Part shown: piece after piece, positions 1 to 44,136 of the stretch
Position numbering within the stretch: position 1 is the first letter of the stretch
Layout: each line of letters opens with the position of its first letter
Source of the DNA: an uncultured candidatus Porisulfidus sp.
Lineage (GTDB): Bacteria; Pseudomonadota; Gammaproteobacteria; Poriferisulfidales; Poriferisulfidaceae
Assembly (NCBI GenBank): GCA_965204575.1
Contig: OZ241993.1
Coordinates: forward strand, 1,120,001 to 1,184,000
Length of the DNA: 64,000 nucleotides
Direction: 5' to 3'
Notes under the pieces: generated by a model
Database searches by the model: none
What the model was told of the DNA's origin: nothing
Seen by the model: the letters and a program-made list of their open reading frames with translations, nothing else
Position numbers and translations under genes: made by a program

Positions 1-149
1 TCGAAGGCTACATCGAGCGGTCCCGTGCCGAAGAAGATCTCGCGGCAACCGAATGATCTGGCTGGACAGGTCTTTTGTCTTTGGAGCGGAGTAATACTAC
101 TGAGCGAGAAAATCGATCTGGAGTTCCGGACAATCACCGGGAGTTATTT

Positions 150-31761: not shown

Positions 31762-32301
31762 ATGAACCAGATGGCCGCGGTTCAACGCTTGTCGGCACTT
31801 GACCGGCAGGGACGCCATGTCTTTGCCCGTGCCGACCTGGCCAAGGTGTTTCACGAGGACGAAGAACGAACCCTGCAAGCCGGTCTTGACCGGCTGGTGC
31901 GCCAGAGGATTCTGCTTCGCGTGGCAAGAGGCGCCTATGTCTATGCGTTGTCGGCAAGCATGGGTGCCGGTACGTTGGAACAGATCGCCAAGACCATCCG
32001 CCGGGGTGAATACAACTACCTCAGCCTGGAATCCGCGCTTTCCGAGTATGGCATCATCTCGCAGGTTCCGCTGGACCGGCTGACGGTGATGACGACCGGA
32101 CGAAAAGGTGAATACAAAACGCCTTTCGGCACCATTGAGTTCACGCACACGCGCCGTCGCGCCTCGGATATCCTCGACAATACCCAGGTCGTGGACCGGC
32201 CACTGAGAATGGCGAGCCCGGCGGCTGCCTGCCGGGACCTGAGGCGCGTGGGTCGCAACACCCACCTGATCGAGGAGGCCGCGCTCGATGAGTATCGCTA
32301 G
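31762..32301 (+). CDS. Type IV TA antitoxin AbiEi
   Basis: L.RVARGAY, YLSLESALSEYGIISQVP, GTIEFTH. Confidence 0.88.
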   Translation: MNQMAAVQRLSALDRQGRHVFARADLAKVFHEDEERTLQAGLDRLVRQRILLRVARGAYVYALSASMGAGTLEQIAKTIRRGEYNYLSLESALSEYGIISQVPLDRLTVMTTGRKGEYKTPFGTIEFTHTRRRASDILDNTQVVDRPLRMASPAAACRDLRRVGRNTHLIEEAALDEYR

Positions 32302-33208
32302 GGAAGACTTCAGGCGGTTCGTCGACCGTGCCGTGCAGGACGCGAGCCTCGGGCATATGCGGCCCGTGATCGAAAAAGAGTTGCTGCACTACGACATCCT
32401 GTTCTGCCTGGAACAGGGGCGCTTGCTGGACGGCTTGGTGTTTCAGGGCGGGACTTCATTGCGATTGTGCCGCGGCGGAAGCCGGTTCAGCGAGGATCTG
32501 GATTTCGCCGGAGGCCGGGACTTCTCCCCCTCGACGTTCGTCGAGATGAAGGCCTGCATCGAGGACTACGTGGGTTCGCGGTATGGCCTAGAGGTCGGGG
32601 TCAAGGAGCCTCCCGTTCGGGGAAAGGACCCGAAGCACGCGGAGCTGAATATCGACAAATGGCAGATCAGCGTCGCGGTCTCGCCGAAACGCAAGGATAT
32701 TCCCCGGCAACGCATCAAGGTCGAAGTGGCCAATGTTCCGGCCTACACCGCGGAAGCGGTTCCATTGAGGGTCAATTACGCCTTCCTTCCGGACGGCTAT
32801 GGCGACATGCTGATCTTCGCGGAAACGCTGGACGAGGTCATGGCCGACAAGATGGTGTCGCTTGCGGCCACGCGGAAATCCATCCGATACCGCGACATCT
32901 GGGACCTGTCGTGGCTGAAGCAGCAAGGCGCGACTGTTCAGGGGGACCTGGTCCGGCGCAAGCTTGGGGATTACCGCTTGCCCGGCGACGCGGCGATGTT
33001 CGATGACCTGGTCGCAAGGATTCCCGGCCTTGTTGCGGAAGCGGAGTTCAAGAACGAAATGCGGCGGTTCCTGCCGTCGGACGTCTACGACCGGACCTTC
33101 GGCAGCGGGAAGTTCGAAGGGTTCCTGGCCGGTGCCGTTGGCGGGTTGTTCGAGGAGTTGAGGCGGGGGTTCGGCGATGGAAAGTCCGACCCGGAATTCC
33201 TGCTGTGA
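32288..33208 (+). CDS. Type IV TA toxin AbiEii
   Basis: IEKELLH, FQGGTSLRL, RFSEDLDF, ADK, RDIWDL. Confidence 0.92.
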   Translation: MSIAREDFRRFVDRAVQDASLGHMRPVIEKELLHYDILFCLEQGRLLDGLVFQGGTSLRLCRGGSRFSEDLDFAGGRDFSPSTFVEMKACIEDYVGSRYGLEVGVKEPPVRGKDPKHAELNIDKWQISVAVSPKRKDIPRQRIKVEVANVPAYTAEAVPLRVNYAFLPDGYGDMLIFAETLDEVMADKMVSLAATRKSIRYRDIWDLSWLKQQGATVQGDLVRRKLGDYRLPGDAAMFDDLVARIPGLVAEAEFKNEMRRFLPSDVYDRTFGSGKFEGFLAGAVGGLFEELRRGFGDGKSDPEFLL

Positions 33209-33272
33209 AGTTTTCCCGCCTGGATGATCCAGAGGTGGCGGCTCCAAAATTCCGATGCGGAGAATAAAGGGT

Positions 33273-33301
33273 ATAATATCCGCATAATTTGCGGATATTA
33301 T
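33273..33301 (+). promoter_or_regulatory. 12-bp inverted repeat over the -10 box of fic
   Basis: ATAATATCCGCA-N5-TGCGGATATTAT ending 1 nt before the ATG. Confidence 0.7.
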
Positions 33302-33302
33302 C

Positions 33303-34418
33303 ATGTATCTTTGGGAACGGCCCCGATGGCCTGACTTTTCCTGGAACGGGGAGCGCTTGGGCAAAAGCCTTGCCTTGGCTCACCATGAAAAAGGGCGTCT
33401 GCTGGGGAGAATGGAGGCGTTGGGGTTCGAGTTTCGGGAAGAAGCCTGCCTCCAGGTCCTGACCCAGGAGGTGGTGAAGTCCAGTGAAATCGAAGGGGAG
33501 ATTCTAAATAGTGACCAGGTTCGCTCGTCCATTGCGAGACGCCTGGGGATGGATGTCGGAGGCTTGCTTCCGGCGGACCGGGATATCGAGGGCATGGTCG
33601 AGATGGCGCTGGACGCGGCCGGCAGCTTCGACAAGCCCTTGACCGAAGACCGCCTGTGCGGATGGCAGGCGGCCCTGTTCCCGGCCGGGCGCAGCGGCCT
33701 GCGGAAAATCGCCGTGGGCGATTGGCGCGACGACCGCGAGGGCCCCATGCAGGTTGTCTCCGGGCCGATGGGCAAGGAGAAAGTCCACTACCAGGCGCCG
33801 CCGGCCGACCGGGTACCCGGCGAAATGGCGAAGTTCCTCTCCTGGTTCGGGCAGACCCCCGACATGGATCTTCTCGTCAAGGCTGGCCTCGCCCACCTGT
33901 GGCTCGTGACGATTCACCCCTTCGAGGATGGGAATGGGCGCATTGCGCGCGCAGTCGCCGACATGGTTCTTTCGCAGTCGGACGACAGCCCCCGACGCTT
34001 CTACAGCATGTCTGCACAGATCCGGACGGAACGCGAACAGTATTACGCCATGCTTGAGAGTTCACAGAAGTCGGACCTGGATGTCACCTTATGGCTCGAA
34101 TGGTTCCTCGGCTGCCTGGTTCGGGCGGTCGAGAGTTCGCAGGAGACCGTGAGCGCAGTCCTGCAGAAGGCGCGATTCTGGGAACGTTTCTCCCAGGAAC
34201 CCCTCAACGAAAGGCAGATCAAGGTCCTGAACCGGCTGCTCGACGGCTTCGAGGGGAAGCTCACGTCTTCCAAATGGGCGAGGCTCGCCAAGTGCTCGCA
34301 GGACACCGCGTACCGGGATATTCTCGGCCTGATCGAACGGGGAGCCCTTGAGAGGAATCCCGGCGGCGGGCGCAGCACGAGTTACTCGGTCGCCGGGATT
34401 GGCGAACAGAGAGAGTAG
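33303..34418 (+). CDS. Fic protein with DUF4172 N-terminus and C-terminal wHTH
   Basis: MYLWERPRWPDF, SSEIEGE, HPFEDGNGRIAR, GGRSTSY. Confidence 0.93.
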   Translation: MYLWERPRWPDFSWNGERLGKSLALAHHEKGRLLGRMEALGFEFREEACLQVLTQEVVKSSEIEGEILNSDQVRSSIARRLGMDVGGLLPADRDIEGMVEMALDAAGSFDKPLTEDRLCGWQAALFPAGRSGLRKIAVGDWRDDREGPMQVVSGPMGKEKVHYQAPPADRVPGEMAKFLSWFGQTPDMDLLVKAGLAHLWLVTIHPFEDGNGRIARAVADMVLSQSDDSPRRFYSMSAQIRTEREQYYAMLESSQKSDLDVTLWLEWFLGCLVRAVESSQETVSAVLQKARFWERFSQEPLNERQIKVLNRLLDGFEGKLTSSKWARLAKCSQDTAYRDILGLIERGALERNPGGGRSTSYSVAGIGEQRE

Positions 34419-34452
34419 GGCACGAGAAAGGGTGCCGAACAAACTTTTCTGT

Positions 34453-34617
34453 TTAGATGCCTAGGTCTTTGAAAAAGTCTTCGGCATTGCTGAAGCGCTT
34501 GCCCTTGCCCTCGTCCAGTTCCTTCATCGCCTCCAGGGTGAGAGCGTTCGGCACTCTGAAGAGCCCCGTCTCGGCATCGCGGCTGGCCTGCGTGCGCATA
34601 TCAGTCTCGGTATTCAT
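34453..34617 (-). CDS. Shortened DinJ/RelB-like antitoxin (54 aa, not in ORF track)
   Basis: AGGAGG RBS; MNTETDMRTQASRDAETGLFRVPNALTLEAMKELDEGKGKRFSNAEDFFKDLGI resembles the DinJ C-terminal half. Confidence 0.7.
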   Translation of the reverse strand: MNTETDMRTQASRDAETGLFRVPNALTLEAMKELDEGKGKRFSNAEDFFKDLGI

Positions 34618-34814
34618 CTGAAACCCCTCCTGCGCGGCTTATTTTGGCCGTATTGGGGAGTCTTTTCAAGGGCTTGCGCATGGCCAGAAGTCGAATGTTA
34701 TACTTGATTTCACGGGCTCTCTCGGGCAATGGAATGCGGAAGAGGGATTCGAATCAACCCGAGGTTCGGGATATAAGGCTAACCGACCTGCATGGATAGG
34801 GAATCAGCAGAACC

Positions 34815-35123
34815 ATGAACATTAGTCTTGAATTGATCACGATTGTCGCGTTGTGGCTCACCACGATGGGCTTTCTTATAAGCCTTCACCGGGATGTTGC
34901 CGGTCTTCGCGAGAAGATGGGGCACCTTGAGGGGAGGATGGGTCGTCTCGAGGACAGGATGACACACCTCGAGGACCGGATGAGCCGCCTTGAAGACAGG
35001 ATGGACCAGATCGAGGGCAGGATGGATCATCTGGAGGACAGAATGGGTCGCATCGAAGGCAGGGTGGGCCATCTCGAAGAACTGTTCCAAGGGTTTCGCA
35101 AGCCCGCCGCCGGATTCAGTTAA
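34815..35123 (+). CDS. Membrane-anchored coiled-coil mini-protein, 7-aa repeats
   Basis: N-terminal hydrophobic helix, LHRDV, eight heptads M(G/T/S/D)x(L/I)E(D/G)R. Confidence 0.8.
   Translation: MNISLELITIVALWLTTMGFLISLHRDVAGLREKMGHLEGRMGRLEDRMTHLEDRMSRLEDRMDQIEGRMDHLEDRMGRIEGRVGHLEELFQGFRKPAAGFS
34917..35084 (+). repeat. Eight degenerate 21-nt tandem repeats
   Basis: Units start with ATG/GTG every 21 nt from 34917. Confidence 0.85.
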
Positions 35124-36797: not shown

Positions 36798-38428
36798 AGC
36801 GGGAGGTCGCGGCCTGCCTGCGGGTGCAGCACGGTGTCGCAACCGTCCATGGCCGGGTCCAGTTCCGGGTAATCCAGGGTGTAGTGCAGGCCGCGGCTTT
36901 CGCGGCGCATCATCGCGCAGCGGATGATCAGGTCTGAGACCTGGGCGAGGTTGCGCAGTTCGATCAGGTCCCGCGAAATGCGGAAATCCCGGTAGTATTC
37001 GTTGATTTCCTTGCGCAGCAGGGTGCAGCGGTGCTGGGCCCGTTCCAGCCGCTTGGTGGTGCGCACGATGCCGACGTAGTCCCACATGAAGCGGCGCAGT
37101 TCGTCCCAGTTGTGCGAGACCACCACTTCCTCGTCTGAATCCGATACCCGGCTCTCGTCCCAGGGCGCCACGTCCGGCACCGACGCGTCCCGGGGCAGCG
37201 TCTCGTTGATGTGCTCGCTCGCGGCGTGGGCGAACACCAGGCATTCCAGCAGGGAATTGCTGGCCATCCGGTTCGCGCCGTGCAGCCCGGTATGGGCCAC
37301 TTCCCCGACGGCGTACAGCCCGGGGAGGTCGGTGCAGCCGGAGAGGTCGGTGGCGACGCCGCCGCAGGTGTAGTGCGCGGCCGGCACGACCGGGATCGGC
37401 TGGTGGGCTAGGTCGATGTCGTATTCGAGGCAGCGCTCGTAGATGTTCGGGAACGCCTCGCGCAGCTCGGCGGCCTCCTTGTGGCTGATGTCGAGGTGCA
37501 CGTAGTCCAGCCCGAGGCGCTTCATTTCGTGGTCGATGGCCCGTGCGACGACGTCCCGGGGGGCCAGTTCGCCGCGTTCGTCGAAACGATGCATGAATTC
37601 CGCGCCGCTGCCCGGCAGGCGCAGTTTCGCTCCCTCGCCGCGCAGTGATTCGGTCATCAGGAAGGATTTGGCGCGCGGATCGTACAGGCAGGTCGGGTGG
37701 AACTGGATAAACTCCATGTTGGCCACGCGGCAGCCGGCCCGCCACGCCATGGCCAGCCCGTCTCCGGACGAGGTGTCGGGGTTGGAGGTATACAGGTAGA
37801 CCTTGCTTGCGCCGCCGGTGGCCAGGATCACGCAGCGCGCGCGGTAGGCGTTGACGGCGTTGGTCCGGGTGTCCTGGGCGTAAAGCCCGATGCAGCGGCG
37901 CTTCCCGGCGCTTCGGTCGACGATCAGGTCGACCGCGATGCAATGGCTGTGCAACTCGACGTTGGAACGTTCGCGCACCTGCGCCATGAGCGCTTCCTGG
38001 ATGGTGCGACCGGTGTGATCGGCGACGTGCGCGATCCGCCGGCGGCTGTGCCCGCCCTCCTGGGTCAGGTGCAGTTCGCCGGAAGGCGTGTAGGGAGTAA
38101 AGTTCACGCCCTGGTTCTGCAGCCACTGGATCATGGCGGCACCGCGTTCCGCCACGTGCTGGACTACGTCCGGGCGGCACAGCCCGCCCCCGGCCGAGAT
38201 CGTGTCGGAGACATGCAGGTCGACCGAGTCCTTGTCGTCCAGGACCGCCGAGACCCCCCCTTGGGCGTAGGTCGTCGAGCTTTCGGTCGCAGCCGCCTTG
38301 CACAGCAGTGTGACCTTGAGGCGCGGATCCATCTCCAGCGCGGCGCACAGGCCGGCCGCGCCGCTGCCGAGAATCAGGACATCCGTATCATGCGCAACCG
38401 CTGCGCTGTCTGCAACCAGGCGCTTCAC
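36776..38428 (-). CDS. nadB: L-aspartate oxidase
   Basis: [38 protein letters not shown]; GTG start lies inside the element end. Confidence 0.97.
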
Positions 38429-39831
38429 GATTTGGTGTGGAAATCAGGGGGCGAGCCCCGGTAGTTCCACTGCATCGTTGACGGATCATCGGCGGTCTCC
38501 ACTAGGCACTCAAAGAAGAATGCCTCCGCTTCGTTGTCCCCTCCCCGTCCCGTCACCGGAGCGCCTCCGGCCAAGAGATTTTCCAAGCCCAGATTCAATA
38601 TGTTTCGTGTGGCATTGAGGTCCGCATGGTCCGTGTGTCCGCAGGCCTGGCACTTGAAATGCGCCTGCTCCTTCCGGTTGTCCTGTTCGGTGTGCCCGCA
38701 TTCCGCGCACGCCCGGCTGGTGTTCCGCGCTGGCACCCGGATCAGGTCCGTCGCCTTGTACTTCAGAAAACGGTCCACCATCCCCATGCAGGAAGACTGC
38801 GCCATCTTCCGGTTCAGCGCGGACTTCGCCTTGACGTTTTTCCCGGGCTTCTCCCTTGTCCCCCGCGCCGAGCGGCGCATCGCCTGCACGTCCAGATCCT
38901 CCAGCACGATGTGCTGGAAGTTCCGAGCCAGGTCGGCCGAGGACTGGTGGCTGAAGTCCCTGCGGATCTCCGCCGCCTTGCGCTTCGCCTTTGCCGCGCG
39001 CTGCTGCAGCCGCTGCCGCCGGTTCGAGGCTACCTTGATCTTCTTGCCAGACTTGGTACGCACCGCCTTCCCATCGGCGTCCTTCAGTTCAATCCGCTCC
39101 CGGCGGCTCGCCCGCCACTGGTAGTGCCGGGCCCGCGCCTCGTACTTCCCGATCCGCTCGTACGGAATCTCGATGAGTCTCCGTCCTCCACACCAGCCCG
39201 CCGCGAGGTTCTCCGAGTTGCGGTCAATGCCGCAGACCCCGCCGTGCCAGCGCCAGTCCGGGTCCTCTACCTCCCACAGCACCGACACGTACCACTTAGC
39301 GAGTTCCCGGTACACCACCGCGACCTTGGCCTCGCCGCCGTCCCAGGGGTCGGCCCCCCGCGTGCGCGACTGCGCCTTGCGGTTCATCCGGATCCAGCCG
39401 ACCTTCGGTACCCAAAGCCGCTTCTTCTTTACCTTCACGTCGTACGGGATCGTAAACGACTCCCGGCTGACACCCTTGATCTTGAAACGGGGGAACCCGG
39501 CCTGCTTGCCGCACTTGCCTTCCCGCCGACGGTGGGAGAAATGCGCGAACGCCGCCCCCAGCGGGAACGCTCCCGTGCCGCGCACAACCGTGGCCGACAA
39601 CCCCCGCAGCCATTCGTGGCCTTCCGTTGCCTTCAAGCGCGTGTACCGCTTCGCGAAGTCAAATTCGGAGGCGCCCGGCCGGTCTCTTTCTCCGGCCTCG
39701 AAACGCCCGTATTCCCGGATCTGGTCAGCCAGCAACTCGTTGTAGACGAACCGGCCGGCCCCGCACAACTGTGTGAACTGCCGCTCCTGCGTCTGGTTCG
39801 GATACAGACGGTAGCGGGAGGCTCGGTGCAT
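38425..39831 (-). CDS. tnpB: TnpB RNA-guided endonuclease
   Basis: YRLYPN, GFPRFK, RuvC GID / VLEDL / HADLNA..NI, Zn finger CAEC-CQAC. Confidence 0.95.
   Translation of the reverse strand: MHRASRYRLYPNQTQERQFTQLCGAGRFVYNELLADQIREYGRFEAGERDRPGASEFDFAKRYTRLKATEGHEWLRGLSATVVRGTGAFPLGAAFAHFSHRRREGKCGKQAGFPRFKIKGVSRESFTIPYDVKVKKKRLWVPKVGWIRMNRKAQSRTRGADPWDGGEAKVAVVYRELAKWYVSVLWEVEDPDWRWHGGVCGIDRNSENLAAGWCGGRRLIEIPYERIGKYEARARHYQWRASRRERIELKDADGKAVRTKSGKKIKVASNRRQRLQQRAAKAKRKAAEIRRDFSHQSSADLARNFQHIVLEDLDVQAMRRSARGTREKPGKNVKAKSALNRKMAQSSCMGMVDRFLKYKATDLIRVPARNTSRACAECGHTEQDNRKEQAHFKCQACGHTDHADLNATRNILNLGLENLLAGGAPVTGRGGDNEAEAFFFECLVETADDPSTMQWNYRGSPPDFHTKS
38444..38580 (-). ncRNA. Putative omegaRNA (scaffold overlapping the tnpB 3' end, plus guide)
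   Basis: Expected position; scaffold ends GATCCGTCAA near 38478; bounds approximate. Confidence 0.5.
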
Positions 39832-39998
39832 GATGGCGTACTCTATCACGCCTTTCCACACGAATCCGTGAAGACCACAATTGAGCCAATTTGCCATGCC
39901 AAATTAATTATAATGTTGCCCTTATGAATTGCCCTACCCCGTGTGCTTGACGCAGCCTCGCGAGAATCTTCTTTGGCGGATCGGCCCAGCGTGCCGAG

Positions 39999-43613: not shown

Positions 43614-43812
43614 GGGATCGAGGCACGGCGCAGGAGAGAGTCCCGGGGGGCTCGAAAACCCGTCCGGGCGGGTGTCTGGCGGCGCGAGCAGGACGCTGGA
43701 CGGCCGTGCTACAATCGCTTTCAATGCCTTCCGGACATGGAAGTTCCGAGGGATTGATCGAAACACTCAAGGTTGGAATAAATTAAGGCTGACCGACCGG
43801 TAAGGAATCATC

Positions 43813-44136
43813 ATGATGATTGATGCAGGCGTACTCCAGATCGTTGCGGTGGTGGCGATTCTGGGTTTCATGTGGACGCTTCACCGTGACGTCAGCAACT
43901 TGCGCAAAGAGGTCGGCAAGGATATTGCCGAAGTTCGCAAGGACATGGCGGATCTTCGCCAGGAAGTCGGCCGGGACATCTCTGAAGTCCGTAAGGACAT
44001 GGCGGATCTTCGCCAGGAAGTCAACCGGGACACCTTTGAAATCCGTAAGGACATGGCGGGTCTCCGCGAGCGCCTGGTCAGGGTGGAAGGCCTGTTGGAG
44101 AGTTTTGTCGGCCGTCCGCCTGAACCGCAGTCCTGA
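43813..44136 (+). CDS. Membrane-anchored coiled-coil mini-protein, 18-aa repeats
   Basis: N-terminal TM, LHRDV, RKDMADLRQEV.RD repeats; resembles 34815-35123. Confidence 0.8.
   Translation: MMIDAGVLQIVAVVAILGFMWTLHRDVSNLRKEVGKDIAEVRKDMADLRQEVGRDISEVRKDMADLRQEVNRDTFEIRKDMAGLRERLVRVEGLLESFVGRPPEPQS
43936..44067 (+). repeat. 54-nt tandem repeat (~2.5 copies)
   Basis: CG(C/T)AAGGACATGGCGG at 43936, 43990, 44044. Confidence 0.9.

Follow-up and report, generated by a model that had tools for sequence, protein, structure and literature searches.

Leaders repressed by CsrA or RsmA, such as those of E. coli glgC and Pseudomonas hcnA, appear closest in working principle to the element reported here. 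In a review (PMC7652899), high-affinity CsrA sites are given the SELEX consensus RUACARGGAUGU, with the GGA in a loop, mostly of 6 nt, on a stem of at most 4 bp. The glgC design described there combines an upstream hairpin with a site on the Shine-Dalgarno sequence, and dual-site bridging by CsrA is given a range of 10-63 nt (PMC7652899). The element is a 5′ leader found in two copies (A and B), each in front of a gene for a small protein (mini-gene), in a 64,000 nt stretch of DNA from an uncultured candidatus Porisulfidus sp. (assembly GCA_965204575.1, contig OZ241993.1, positions 1,120,001-1,184,000 of the forward strand). This whole stretch is called the window; its first letter is window position 1, and genome-wide coordinates carry the prefix G000:C1. 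On the comparative sequence evidence, the element is very probably a structured cis-regulatory 5′ leader; its range is one genus, and it matches no family of Rfam 15.

With the CsrA-repressed leaders, as these are presented in PMC7652899, the element shares a GGA in the six-base loop of a short upstream hairpin, a further GGA on the ribosome-binding site, several GGA per leader, and a csrA gene in the genome. It differs from them in an extra conserved hairpin loop with UAAGGC, which has no counterpart in the CsrA sites described there, in the distance of 57-76 nt between first and last sites, and in being common to a whole paralog family within one genus. There is no sequence homology, and the leader is a candidate member of this class only.

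The TwoAYGGAY RNA motif of Rfam displays hairpin loops of the form A-Y-G-G-A-N. A loop of similar form is found in the leader; however, there is a single such loop, its middle base can be G, and it lies in the 5′ leader of a coding gene. None of the five leader copies in the genome (A-E) matches this motif at E ≤ 1 or E ≤ 10. Orphan riboswitch candidates and CMfinder-type motifs show covarying stems, conserved loop bases and a fixed place upstream of one gene family, with no known ligand. The leader has the same traits, but its range is one genus, and no terminator or helix that hides the ribosome-binding site is recognised in it. Rfam 15 gives 0 matches at the gathering score over the whole window, and with E ≤ 10 around copy A and E ≤ 1 over the five loci it yields only chance-level matches to unrelated eukaryotic families. 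Searches of the literature on Porisulfidus and on RNA leader motifs of sponge symbionts gave nothing on this leader, as judged by titles and abstracts.

A covariance model was built from the five leader copies of this genome (1,816,663 bases, 60% G+C) and then run on the genome and on 60 genomes of relatives. The relatives consist of 15 other species of the same genus, Candidatus Porisulfidus, and 45 genomes of 18 other genera; the genus set, with this genome included, comprises 16 metagenome-assembled genomes (MAGs) of uncultured Gammaproteobacteria. In this genome the model finds exactly 5 sites at E ≤ 1, copies A-E, with E-values from 4e-25 to 2e-21. The leader is present in 11 of the 16 genomes of the genus (10 of the 15 other species, with 2-9 matches each), and the same search finds it in 0 of the 45 genomes of the 18 other genera. 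All collected loci together give 51 leader matches, of which 46 are distinct and 45 both distinct and full length. A tblastn search with the products of both window genes shows seven paralogous mini-genes in this genome. The leader precedes five of these; neither reading upstream nor the covariance model shows a leader before the sixth and seventh. An earlier sequence-only reading of the window had described two dispersed mini-genes sharing a leader. This is confirmed, and the leader copies in the genome are five, not two.

The open reading frames behind the leader belong to one family. Of the 46 distinct leaders, 45 lie directly (within a few bases) upstream of a mini-protein-family open reading frame (profiles, E ≤ 1e-3), a count to be read with the knowledge that one profile includes the paralogs of this genome and that one open reading frame runs off its contig. 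The exception is the weakest leader match. The proteins, 52-159 aa in length, consist of an N-terminal hydrophobic helix, the sequence LGFLWSLHRD, a variable number of coiled-coil repeats and an R-x-A-R-L/V-EGL-x-EGF tail. The number of repeats varies strongly between orthologs, e.g. the group situated after degP has products of 56, 74, 79, 86 and 107 aa. No Pfam or NCBIfam model reaches its cut-off for the mini-proteins. With a core profile, 684 of 1.84 billion cluster representatives are retrieved at E ≤ 1e-3, and 108 at E ≤ 1e-10.

The protein family is found in 12 of the 16 genomes of the genus, and within the genus the leader occurs only where the protein does: in 11 of the 12 genomes with the protein and in 0 of the 4 without it. 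In the twelfth (G006) the protein family is present and the leader is not found even with the search filters off. A wider set of loci on genome contigs was collected with a 3-sequence mini-protein alignment. Thirty-four of these loci encode relatives, some in MAGs labelled Gammaproteobacteria, Alphaproteobacteria, Thiotrichales, Defluviicoccus and Chloroflexia. The leader is present in 14 of the 34, with scores equal to those in the genus genomes; the other 20 are without it, and upstream regions of the leaderless loci look unrelated. The protein family is thus widespread without the leader, and the leader would therefore be a genus-level invention on an older gene family. In one pair of loci (L063/L064) a contig labelled Nitrospira sp. 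bin75 carries a leader scoring 107.9 bits, the same score as in a Gammaproteobacteria MAG of the genus; the contig was probably misbinned in the public record.

Each unit appears to form a self-contained small operon: an extended -10 promoter is followed by a leader of about 95-115 nt, and this by a single gene for a small membrane-anchored coiled-coil protein. The sequence TGnTAnnnT is situated at the same alignment position in 41 of the 45 full-length copies, with only TG, TA and the final T fixed. No conservation is seen upstream of it in the leader alignment, and a two-hexamer -35/-10 scanner calls no promoter at the leader; at the extended -10 of copy A the scanner is silent because a -35 is absent. 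All of the blocks listed in the sequence-only reading are present in both window copies in identical order, when read and aligned, up to the start codons (Table 1). The pairing that it had drawn between GGTT(C)GG and CCGACC also holds, with a bulged C in copy A and a U.G pair in copy B. The 15-mer TAAGGCTRACCGACC occurs in the whole genome at 2 sites on the + strand, those of copies A and B, and at 0 on the - strand.

The helices are termed P1, P1b, P2 and P3. P1 has the consensus GCCCUC with GAGGG, and nested inside it is P1b, a stem of 2-5 bp with a six-base loop. This loop contains GGA in 45 of 45 copies and A-N-GGA in 44. P3 is a 6-bp stem, GGUYGG with CYGRCC, and has an A-rich loop of 13-16 nt with the consensus AAUAAAUAAGGCUGA, which contains UAAGGC. 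A linker of 10-30 nt follows. Between P3 and codon 2, GGA is found in 45 of 46 copies and ANGGA in 41, often as ACAYGGARU, and the start codon region often reads AUGGAY. P2, in the middle of the leader, displays the variants UUGA/UCAA, UUCAA/UUGAA, CUUCA/UGAAG and CUCG/CGAG. In an anchored-helix test that scores a Watson-Crick pair as 1 and a G.U pair as 0.5, the mean for P2 is 3.30 versus 2.55 ± 0.11 in shuffles; a score of 4 or more is reached by 15 of 46 copies, versus a mean of 4.7 and a maximum of 11 in shuffles. P2 is weak or absent in many copies and is not universal.

Several further arrangements were considered and discarded. A switch between P2 and an extended P1 that would hold for the whole family was given up because the alternative pairing scores 4 or more in only 8 of 45 copies, 7 of which belong to the ortholog group of copy B. 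Pairing of the P3 loop with the start or early coding region, suggested by the folds of copies A and C, has a mean z of +0.38, with 2 of 46 copies below -2. An open reading frame within the leader does not hold up, as many copies have ACG or AGG in place of the ATG in the P1b loop, and 1-nt differences in P3-loop length put the frames out of register. UAAGG is able to pair with the 16S rRNA 3′ end (...CCUCCUUA), but it lies at least 20 nt upstream of the start and for this reason is kept as an idea only.

The evidence that carries the structure is covariation. In the alignment fitted to the model, 89.6% of cells are paired and both sides change in 11 of 15 pairs. The covariation score is 0.347 versus 0.207 ± 0.011 in shuffles (0 of 500 as high), and controls with slid partners give at most 0.119. 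Since the model-fitted alignment leans towards the model, the count was repeated on a structure-blind alignment of 44 sequences made with MAFFT only. On this alignment RNAalifold predicts P1 and P1b unaided, with double changes in all 6 predicted pairs. The named helices P1, P1b and P3 are 88.8% paired, and score 0.325 versus 0.204 ± 0.012 (0 of 500), with slid controls at most 0.146. P1b pairs are found as AA/UU in 20 copies, AC/GU in 9, GA/UC in 7 and CA/UG in 3. P3 shows at least 10 complementary versions, e.g. GGUUGG/CCAACC, GGCCGG/CCGGCC, GGUCAG/CUGACC and AGUCGG/CCGGCU. Wobble pairs of both types, U.G and G.U, are frequent in the helices, which therefore can be formed only by the sense strand, i.e. 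the strand of the mini-gene. The undescribed cis RNA motif suggested by the sequence-only reading is supported by the covarying helices, the wobble pairs that fit the sense strand only, the lack of an Rfam 15 match and the position of 45 of 46 copies before one protein family.

Some observations weigh against a selected structure or limit the case for it. Folded singly, the sequences have unremarkable energies (z from -0.08 to -1.59), and the structure evidence is for this reason covariation and not stability. The 46 sequences fall, by eye, into about 10 paralog groups of close orthologs and so are not independent. The divergence of orthologous leaders is also close to that of four-fold sites: members of the B ortholog group have leaders with an identity of 0.79-0.94 to that of copy B, compared with 0.82-0.86 at four-fold sites of degP and 0.75-0.82 in the spacer. 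These species are too close for the comparison to inform on purifying selection. The sequence-only reading had stated that a lack of covariation, or decay of identity like that of neutral duplicated DNA, would speak against it. Genome-wide collection of the family and the covariance model found covariation among the paralogs, contrary to the first, and the orthologs, with the values just given, are silent on the second. Among the old paralogs, mean pairwise DNA identity is 0.68 in the leader, 0.60 upstream, 0.54 in the coding region, 0.59 downstream and 0.59 for the shuffled leader. Only the leader is above background, and the proteins of these paralogs are as low as 27% identical. It is on the old paralogs that the comparative case for a selected structure rests. 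With covariation as the basis, the leader is very probably a selected, structured cis-acting RNA, and it probably controls the amount of small membrane proteins made.

The best explanation of the whole is a structured leader operon repressed by CsrA, to which we assign a probability of about 0.4. A CsrA dimer would be held at one or more GGA hairpins in the leader and would bridge to the GGA that overlaps the ribosome-binding site, by which translation would be repressed. The whole paralog family would be repressed together, with relief upon titration of CsrA. The CsrA step taken separately, translational control of the leader, we infer only tentatively and at somewhat less than an even chance.

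CsrA is favoured because of the presence of csrA, the form of P1b, the ANGGA on the ribosome-binding site, the enrichment of ANGGA, and the spacings obtained by way of the P3 GGA. The csrA gene (PF02599 above cut-off) is found in 16 of 16 genomes of the genus, in this one at G000:C1:1741107-1741253. P1b, with GGA in a six-base loop on a short covarying stem, matches the form of high-affinity sites given in PMC7652899. At the other end of the leader an ANGGA overlaps the ribosome-binding site. There are 2.66 ANGGA per 111-nt leader versus 0.65 in shuffles and 0.38 per 110 nt genome-wide (4-7-fold enriched), and 4.55 GGA per leader versus 2.31 in shuffles. In 40 of 45 copies the P3 loop has a third GGA at its 5′ edge. 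The median distance is 36 nt from the first site to this GGA and 29 nt from there to the last, and both values are within the bridging range of 10-63 nt quoted above.

A number of findings do not favour CsrA. The presence of csrA is permissive only and discriminates nothing, as the gene is also found in 5 genus genomes without the leader, and a GGA at the ribosome-binding site is expected anyway. From the GGA of P1b to the first GGA after P3 the distance is 57-76 nt, with a median of 65, which is at or above the 63 nt limit given for bridging in PMC7652899. Conservation in the leader is highest in the P3 loop with UAAGGC, a loop that is no CsrA-type site and that CsrA does not account for; the most divergent group has lost the P3 GGA and kept UAAGG. 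The start region is predicted to be neither more nor less paired than the rest of the leader (0.45 vs 0.46 unpaired). Genome-wide ANGGA density reveals no CsrB-like RNA.

The top ANGGA-dense region, G000:C1:316001-316450 with 12 ANGGA per 300 nt, was considered as a CsrB-like RNA and rejected as a coding repeat. The gene at G000:C1:316011-316525, outside the window, contains ATKDDLK(D/G/N)F repeats and a C-terminal hydrophobic segment, and its AAG-GAY codons give it the highest ANGGA density in the genome.

A different kind of sensor is the alternative that survives best, although it is unlikely. The leader would act as a riboswitch that senses a small molecule or an ion, or it would be bound by a trans-acting small RNA or by a protein dedicated to it. 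Recognition would take place at the loops of P3 (AAUAAAUAAGGCUGA) and P1b, and the GGA would be incidental or secondary. The strongest conservation is indeed in unpaired loop bases on covarying stems, which is typical of ligand- or protein-binding RNAs, and the P3-loop UAAGG(C) persists where the neighbouring GGA is lost. Hfq is encoded, and the P3 loop is A-rich in a genome of 60% G+C. Against this, no Rfam family matches, the conserved bases are in terminal loops and not in multi-helix junctions, and the P3 loop does not pair with the start region. There is no terminator-like site in either window leader, no intrinsic terminator in the leader generally and no conserved helix seen to hide the ribosome-binding site, so that the leader tests show neither form of riboswitch expression platform, a terminator or a ribosome-binding-site helix alternating with the sensor. 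A search of the genome for antisense partners of the P3 loop gives 9 non-self 12-mer matches at 7 places, which is not above chance (an expectation of the same order by our own arithmetic). In a bolder version, which is more doubtful still, the P3 loop and the A-N-GGA loop would jointly bind a ligand or dedicated factor and form a new class of RNA sensor co-regulating symbiont-specific membrane coiled-coil proteins of species-variable repeat number. If true, this would be a regulatory switch tied to life inside sponges.

Improbable is a leader that mainly sets stability or processing of the mRNA, with the A/U-rich P3 loop as an entry site for RNase E, or P1 as a protection of the transcript, and with translation not gated. 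P1 lies about 5-20 nt from the inferred transcript start, an A/U-rich single-stranded loop is conspicuous in a G+C-rich genome, and the ribosome-binding site is not predicted to be hidden, all of which would fit. However, no specific loop sequence is predicted by such a role, yet A-N-GGA and UAAGGC are kept.

The leader could also be a signal at the level of DNA and not of RNA, i.e. a recent duplicate or mobile cassette, or an operator or sigma-E-type promoter (GGAAYTT...TCAA), but this is highly improbable. Promoters of sigma-E, an extracytoplasmic function (ECF) sigma factor, have a GGAACTT-N16-TCAAA-like consensus with conserved spacing. Copy B is situated after the rpoE-rseA-rseB-degP cluster, copies A, C and D contain a possible GGAMTT-N15-17-TCAAC/TCACA, and orthologous leaders diverge about like four-fold sites. 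The spacing of the sigma-E boxes nevertheless fails in copies B and E, and the TT of the would-be -35 changes with its pairing partner (AA/UU, AC/GU, GA/UC, CA/UG), which fits a helix and not a sigma-factor contact. Wobble pairs, moreover, work only in sense-strand RNA.

A mobile-cassette signature, as proposed in the sequence-only reading, finds no support in the genomic setting. By tblastx of the flanks, orthologs of every one of the five copies lie beside the same neighbouring genes in other species of the genus, e.g. copy B is situated after degP in 6 other loci and copy C before the same downstream gene in 8. The paralogs are old, and the leader alone exceeds background (0.68 vs 0.54-0.60). 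The pattern GGAATAWAN{0,1}WAAGGCTG was scanned and matched at least 119 metagenome and at least 118 viral stretches, of which 200 (100 + 100) were scored with the covariance model. The leader is present in 0 of the 200 scored loci, where partial matches of at most 17.4 bits are to the typed pattern itself, a pattern too unspecific for absence to be judged. By these sequence comparisons the leader copies are syntenic old paralogs and not mobile cassettes.

Type I toxin-antitoxin loci such as hok/sok and tisB/istR have small membrane proteins, long folded 5′ leaders and several copies per genome. A module of this type, with the mini-protein as a membrane toxin left untranslated through the folded leader and an antisense RNA, would suit the small single-pass hydrophobic-helix products, the long structured leaders in several copies per genome and the AbiEii gene, Fic/DOC gene and RelB-like remnant beside copy A, but this suggestion of the sequence-only reading has gained no positive evidence and is highly improbable: the proteins, at 52-159 aa, are larger and have long coiled coils, and their core (LGFLWSLHRD...EGLxEGF) is strongly conserved; the family, with 684 cluster representatives, occurs without the leader in many other MAGs; the copies are syntenic and stable; and no conserved antisense promoter is seen by eye in the leader alignment.

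The leader provides a defined candidate regulatory RNA for uncultured sponge symbionts, and it suggests a regulon in which each genome has 2-9 small membrane proteins, paralogs of one another. The mini-protein family is uncharacterised, and several of its carriers are labelled as MAGs of uncultured Gamma- and Alphaproteobacteria. Should CsrA be the partner, an entire paralog family would be under CsrA control through one common leader, a clear example of its kind; if it is not, the invariant P3 loop would mark another RNA-recognition event. The general reach is modest because the range is one genus.

Table 1. Leader copies, mini-genes and genes adjoining copy A. Positions are those of the window unless prefixed G000:C1 (genome-wide).
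Feature	Position	Strand	Sequence or description	Basis or remark
Copy A, extended -10	34696-34704	+	TGTTATACT	
Copy A, block	34708-34712		TTTCA	
Copy A, P1/P1b	34717-34746	+		single-sequence fold, RNAalifold on MAFFT-only alignment, pair counts
Copy A, P1	34717-34722 with 34741-34746		CUCUCU with AGAGGG	
Copy A, P1b	34726-34728 with 34735-34737		GCA with UGC; loop AUGGAA 34729-34734	
Copy A, block	34729-34734		ATGGAA	
Copy A, block	34742-34749		GAGGGATT	
Copy A, P2 (weak, middle)	34748-34763	+	UUCG 34748-34751 with CGAG 34760-34763	anchored-helix test
Copy A, P3	34763-34788	+	GGUUCGG 34763-34769 (bulged C) with CCGACC 34783-34788; loop GAUAUAAGGCUAA	
Copy A, 15-mer	34774-34788		TAAGGCTRACCGACC	
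Copy A, two ANGGA	34792-34796, 34798-34802	+	AUGGA, AGGGA	ribosome-binding region
Copy A, block	34801-34807		GGAATCA	
Copy A, start codon	34815			
Copy A, mini-gene	34815-35123	+	102 aa; N-terminal hydrophobic helix, LHRDV, LEDRM-type repeats, EELFQGF tail	
Copy B, extended -10	43707-43715	+	TGCTACAAT	
Copy B, block	43719-43723		TTTCA	
Copy B, P2 alternative	43721-43725		UCAAU, can pair with 5′ arm of P2	in B ortholog group
Copy B, P1/P1b	43727-43752	+		fold, RNAalifold, pair counts
Copy B, P1	43727-43731 with 43748-43752		CCUUC with GAGGG	
Copy B, P1b	43733-43736 with 43743-43746		GGAC with GUUC; loop AUGGAA 43737-43742	
Copy B, block	43737-43742		ATGGAA	
Copy B, block	43748-43755		GAGGGATT	
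Copy B, P2	43754-43770	+	UUGA 43754-43757 with UCAA 43767-43770	
Copy B, P3	43771-43798	+	GGUUGG 43771-43776 with CCGACC 43793-43798 (one U.G pair); loop AAUAAAUUAAGGCUGA	
Copy B, 15-mer	43784-43798		TAAGGCTRACCGACC	
Copy B, ANGGA	43802-43806	+	AAGGA	ribosome-binding site and ANGGA motif
Copy B, block	43804-43810		GGAATCA	
Copy B, start codon	43813			
Copy B, mini-gene	43813-44136	+	107 aa	after rpoE-rseA-rseB-degP cluster
Copy C, mini-gene	G000:C1:866177	+		
Copy D, mini-gene	G000:C1:162124	-		
Copy E, mini-gene	G000:C1:1689979	-		
Sixth paralog	starts G000:C1:1119787; window 1-56		89 aa; crosses window start	without leader
Seventh paralog	G000:C1:1098314		52 aa	without leader
AbiEii nucleotidyltransferase	32288-33208			small defence/toxin-antitoxin islet adjoining copy A (32288-34617)
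DUF4172 + Fic/DOC protein	33303-34418			islet adjoining copy A
54-aa open reading frame	34453-34617	-	weak match to end of RelB	islet adjoining copy A

Copy A is situated between the AbiEii, Fic/DOC and RelB-like genes of Table 1 and a steroid-5-alpha-reductase-like gene. Copy B, after the rpoE-rseA-rseB-degP genes, faces recQ. Between nadB-like and rpoE-like genes the window also contains an IS605 OrfB/TnpB-like gene (38425-39897, - strand) with HTH_OrfB_IS605, OrfB_IS605 and Cas12f1-like TNB domains.

Tandem units of leader and mini-gene are found in other species. In G013:C1:1418883-1420067 (loci L024/L040) three are present in a row with a spacing of about 510-540 bp, and further tandem arrays are seen at G011:C2 77553/78407, G012:C6 23863/24322 and G007:C52. 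One species (locus L056, 1498; 1776-1900) has a mini-gene right after degP without the leader, and the next tandem gene carries it. Locus L061 (1371-1506) retains the P3 half of the leader (22 bits) and has an unrelated 5′ half. These two loci are natural deletion variants of the leader.

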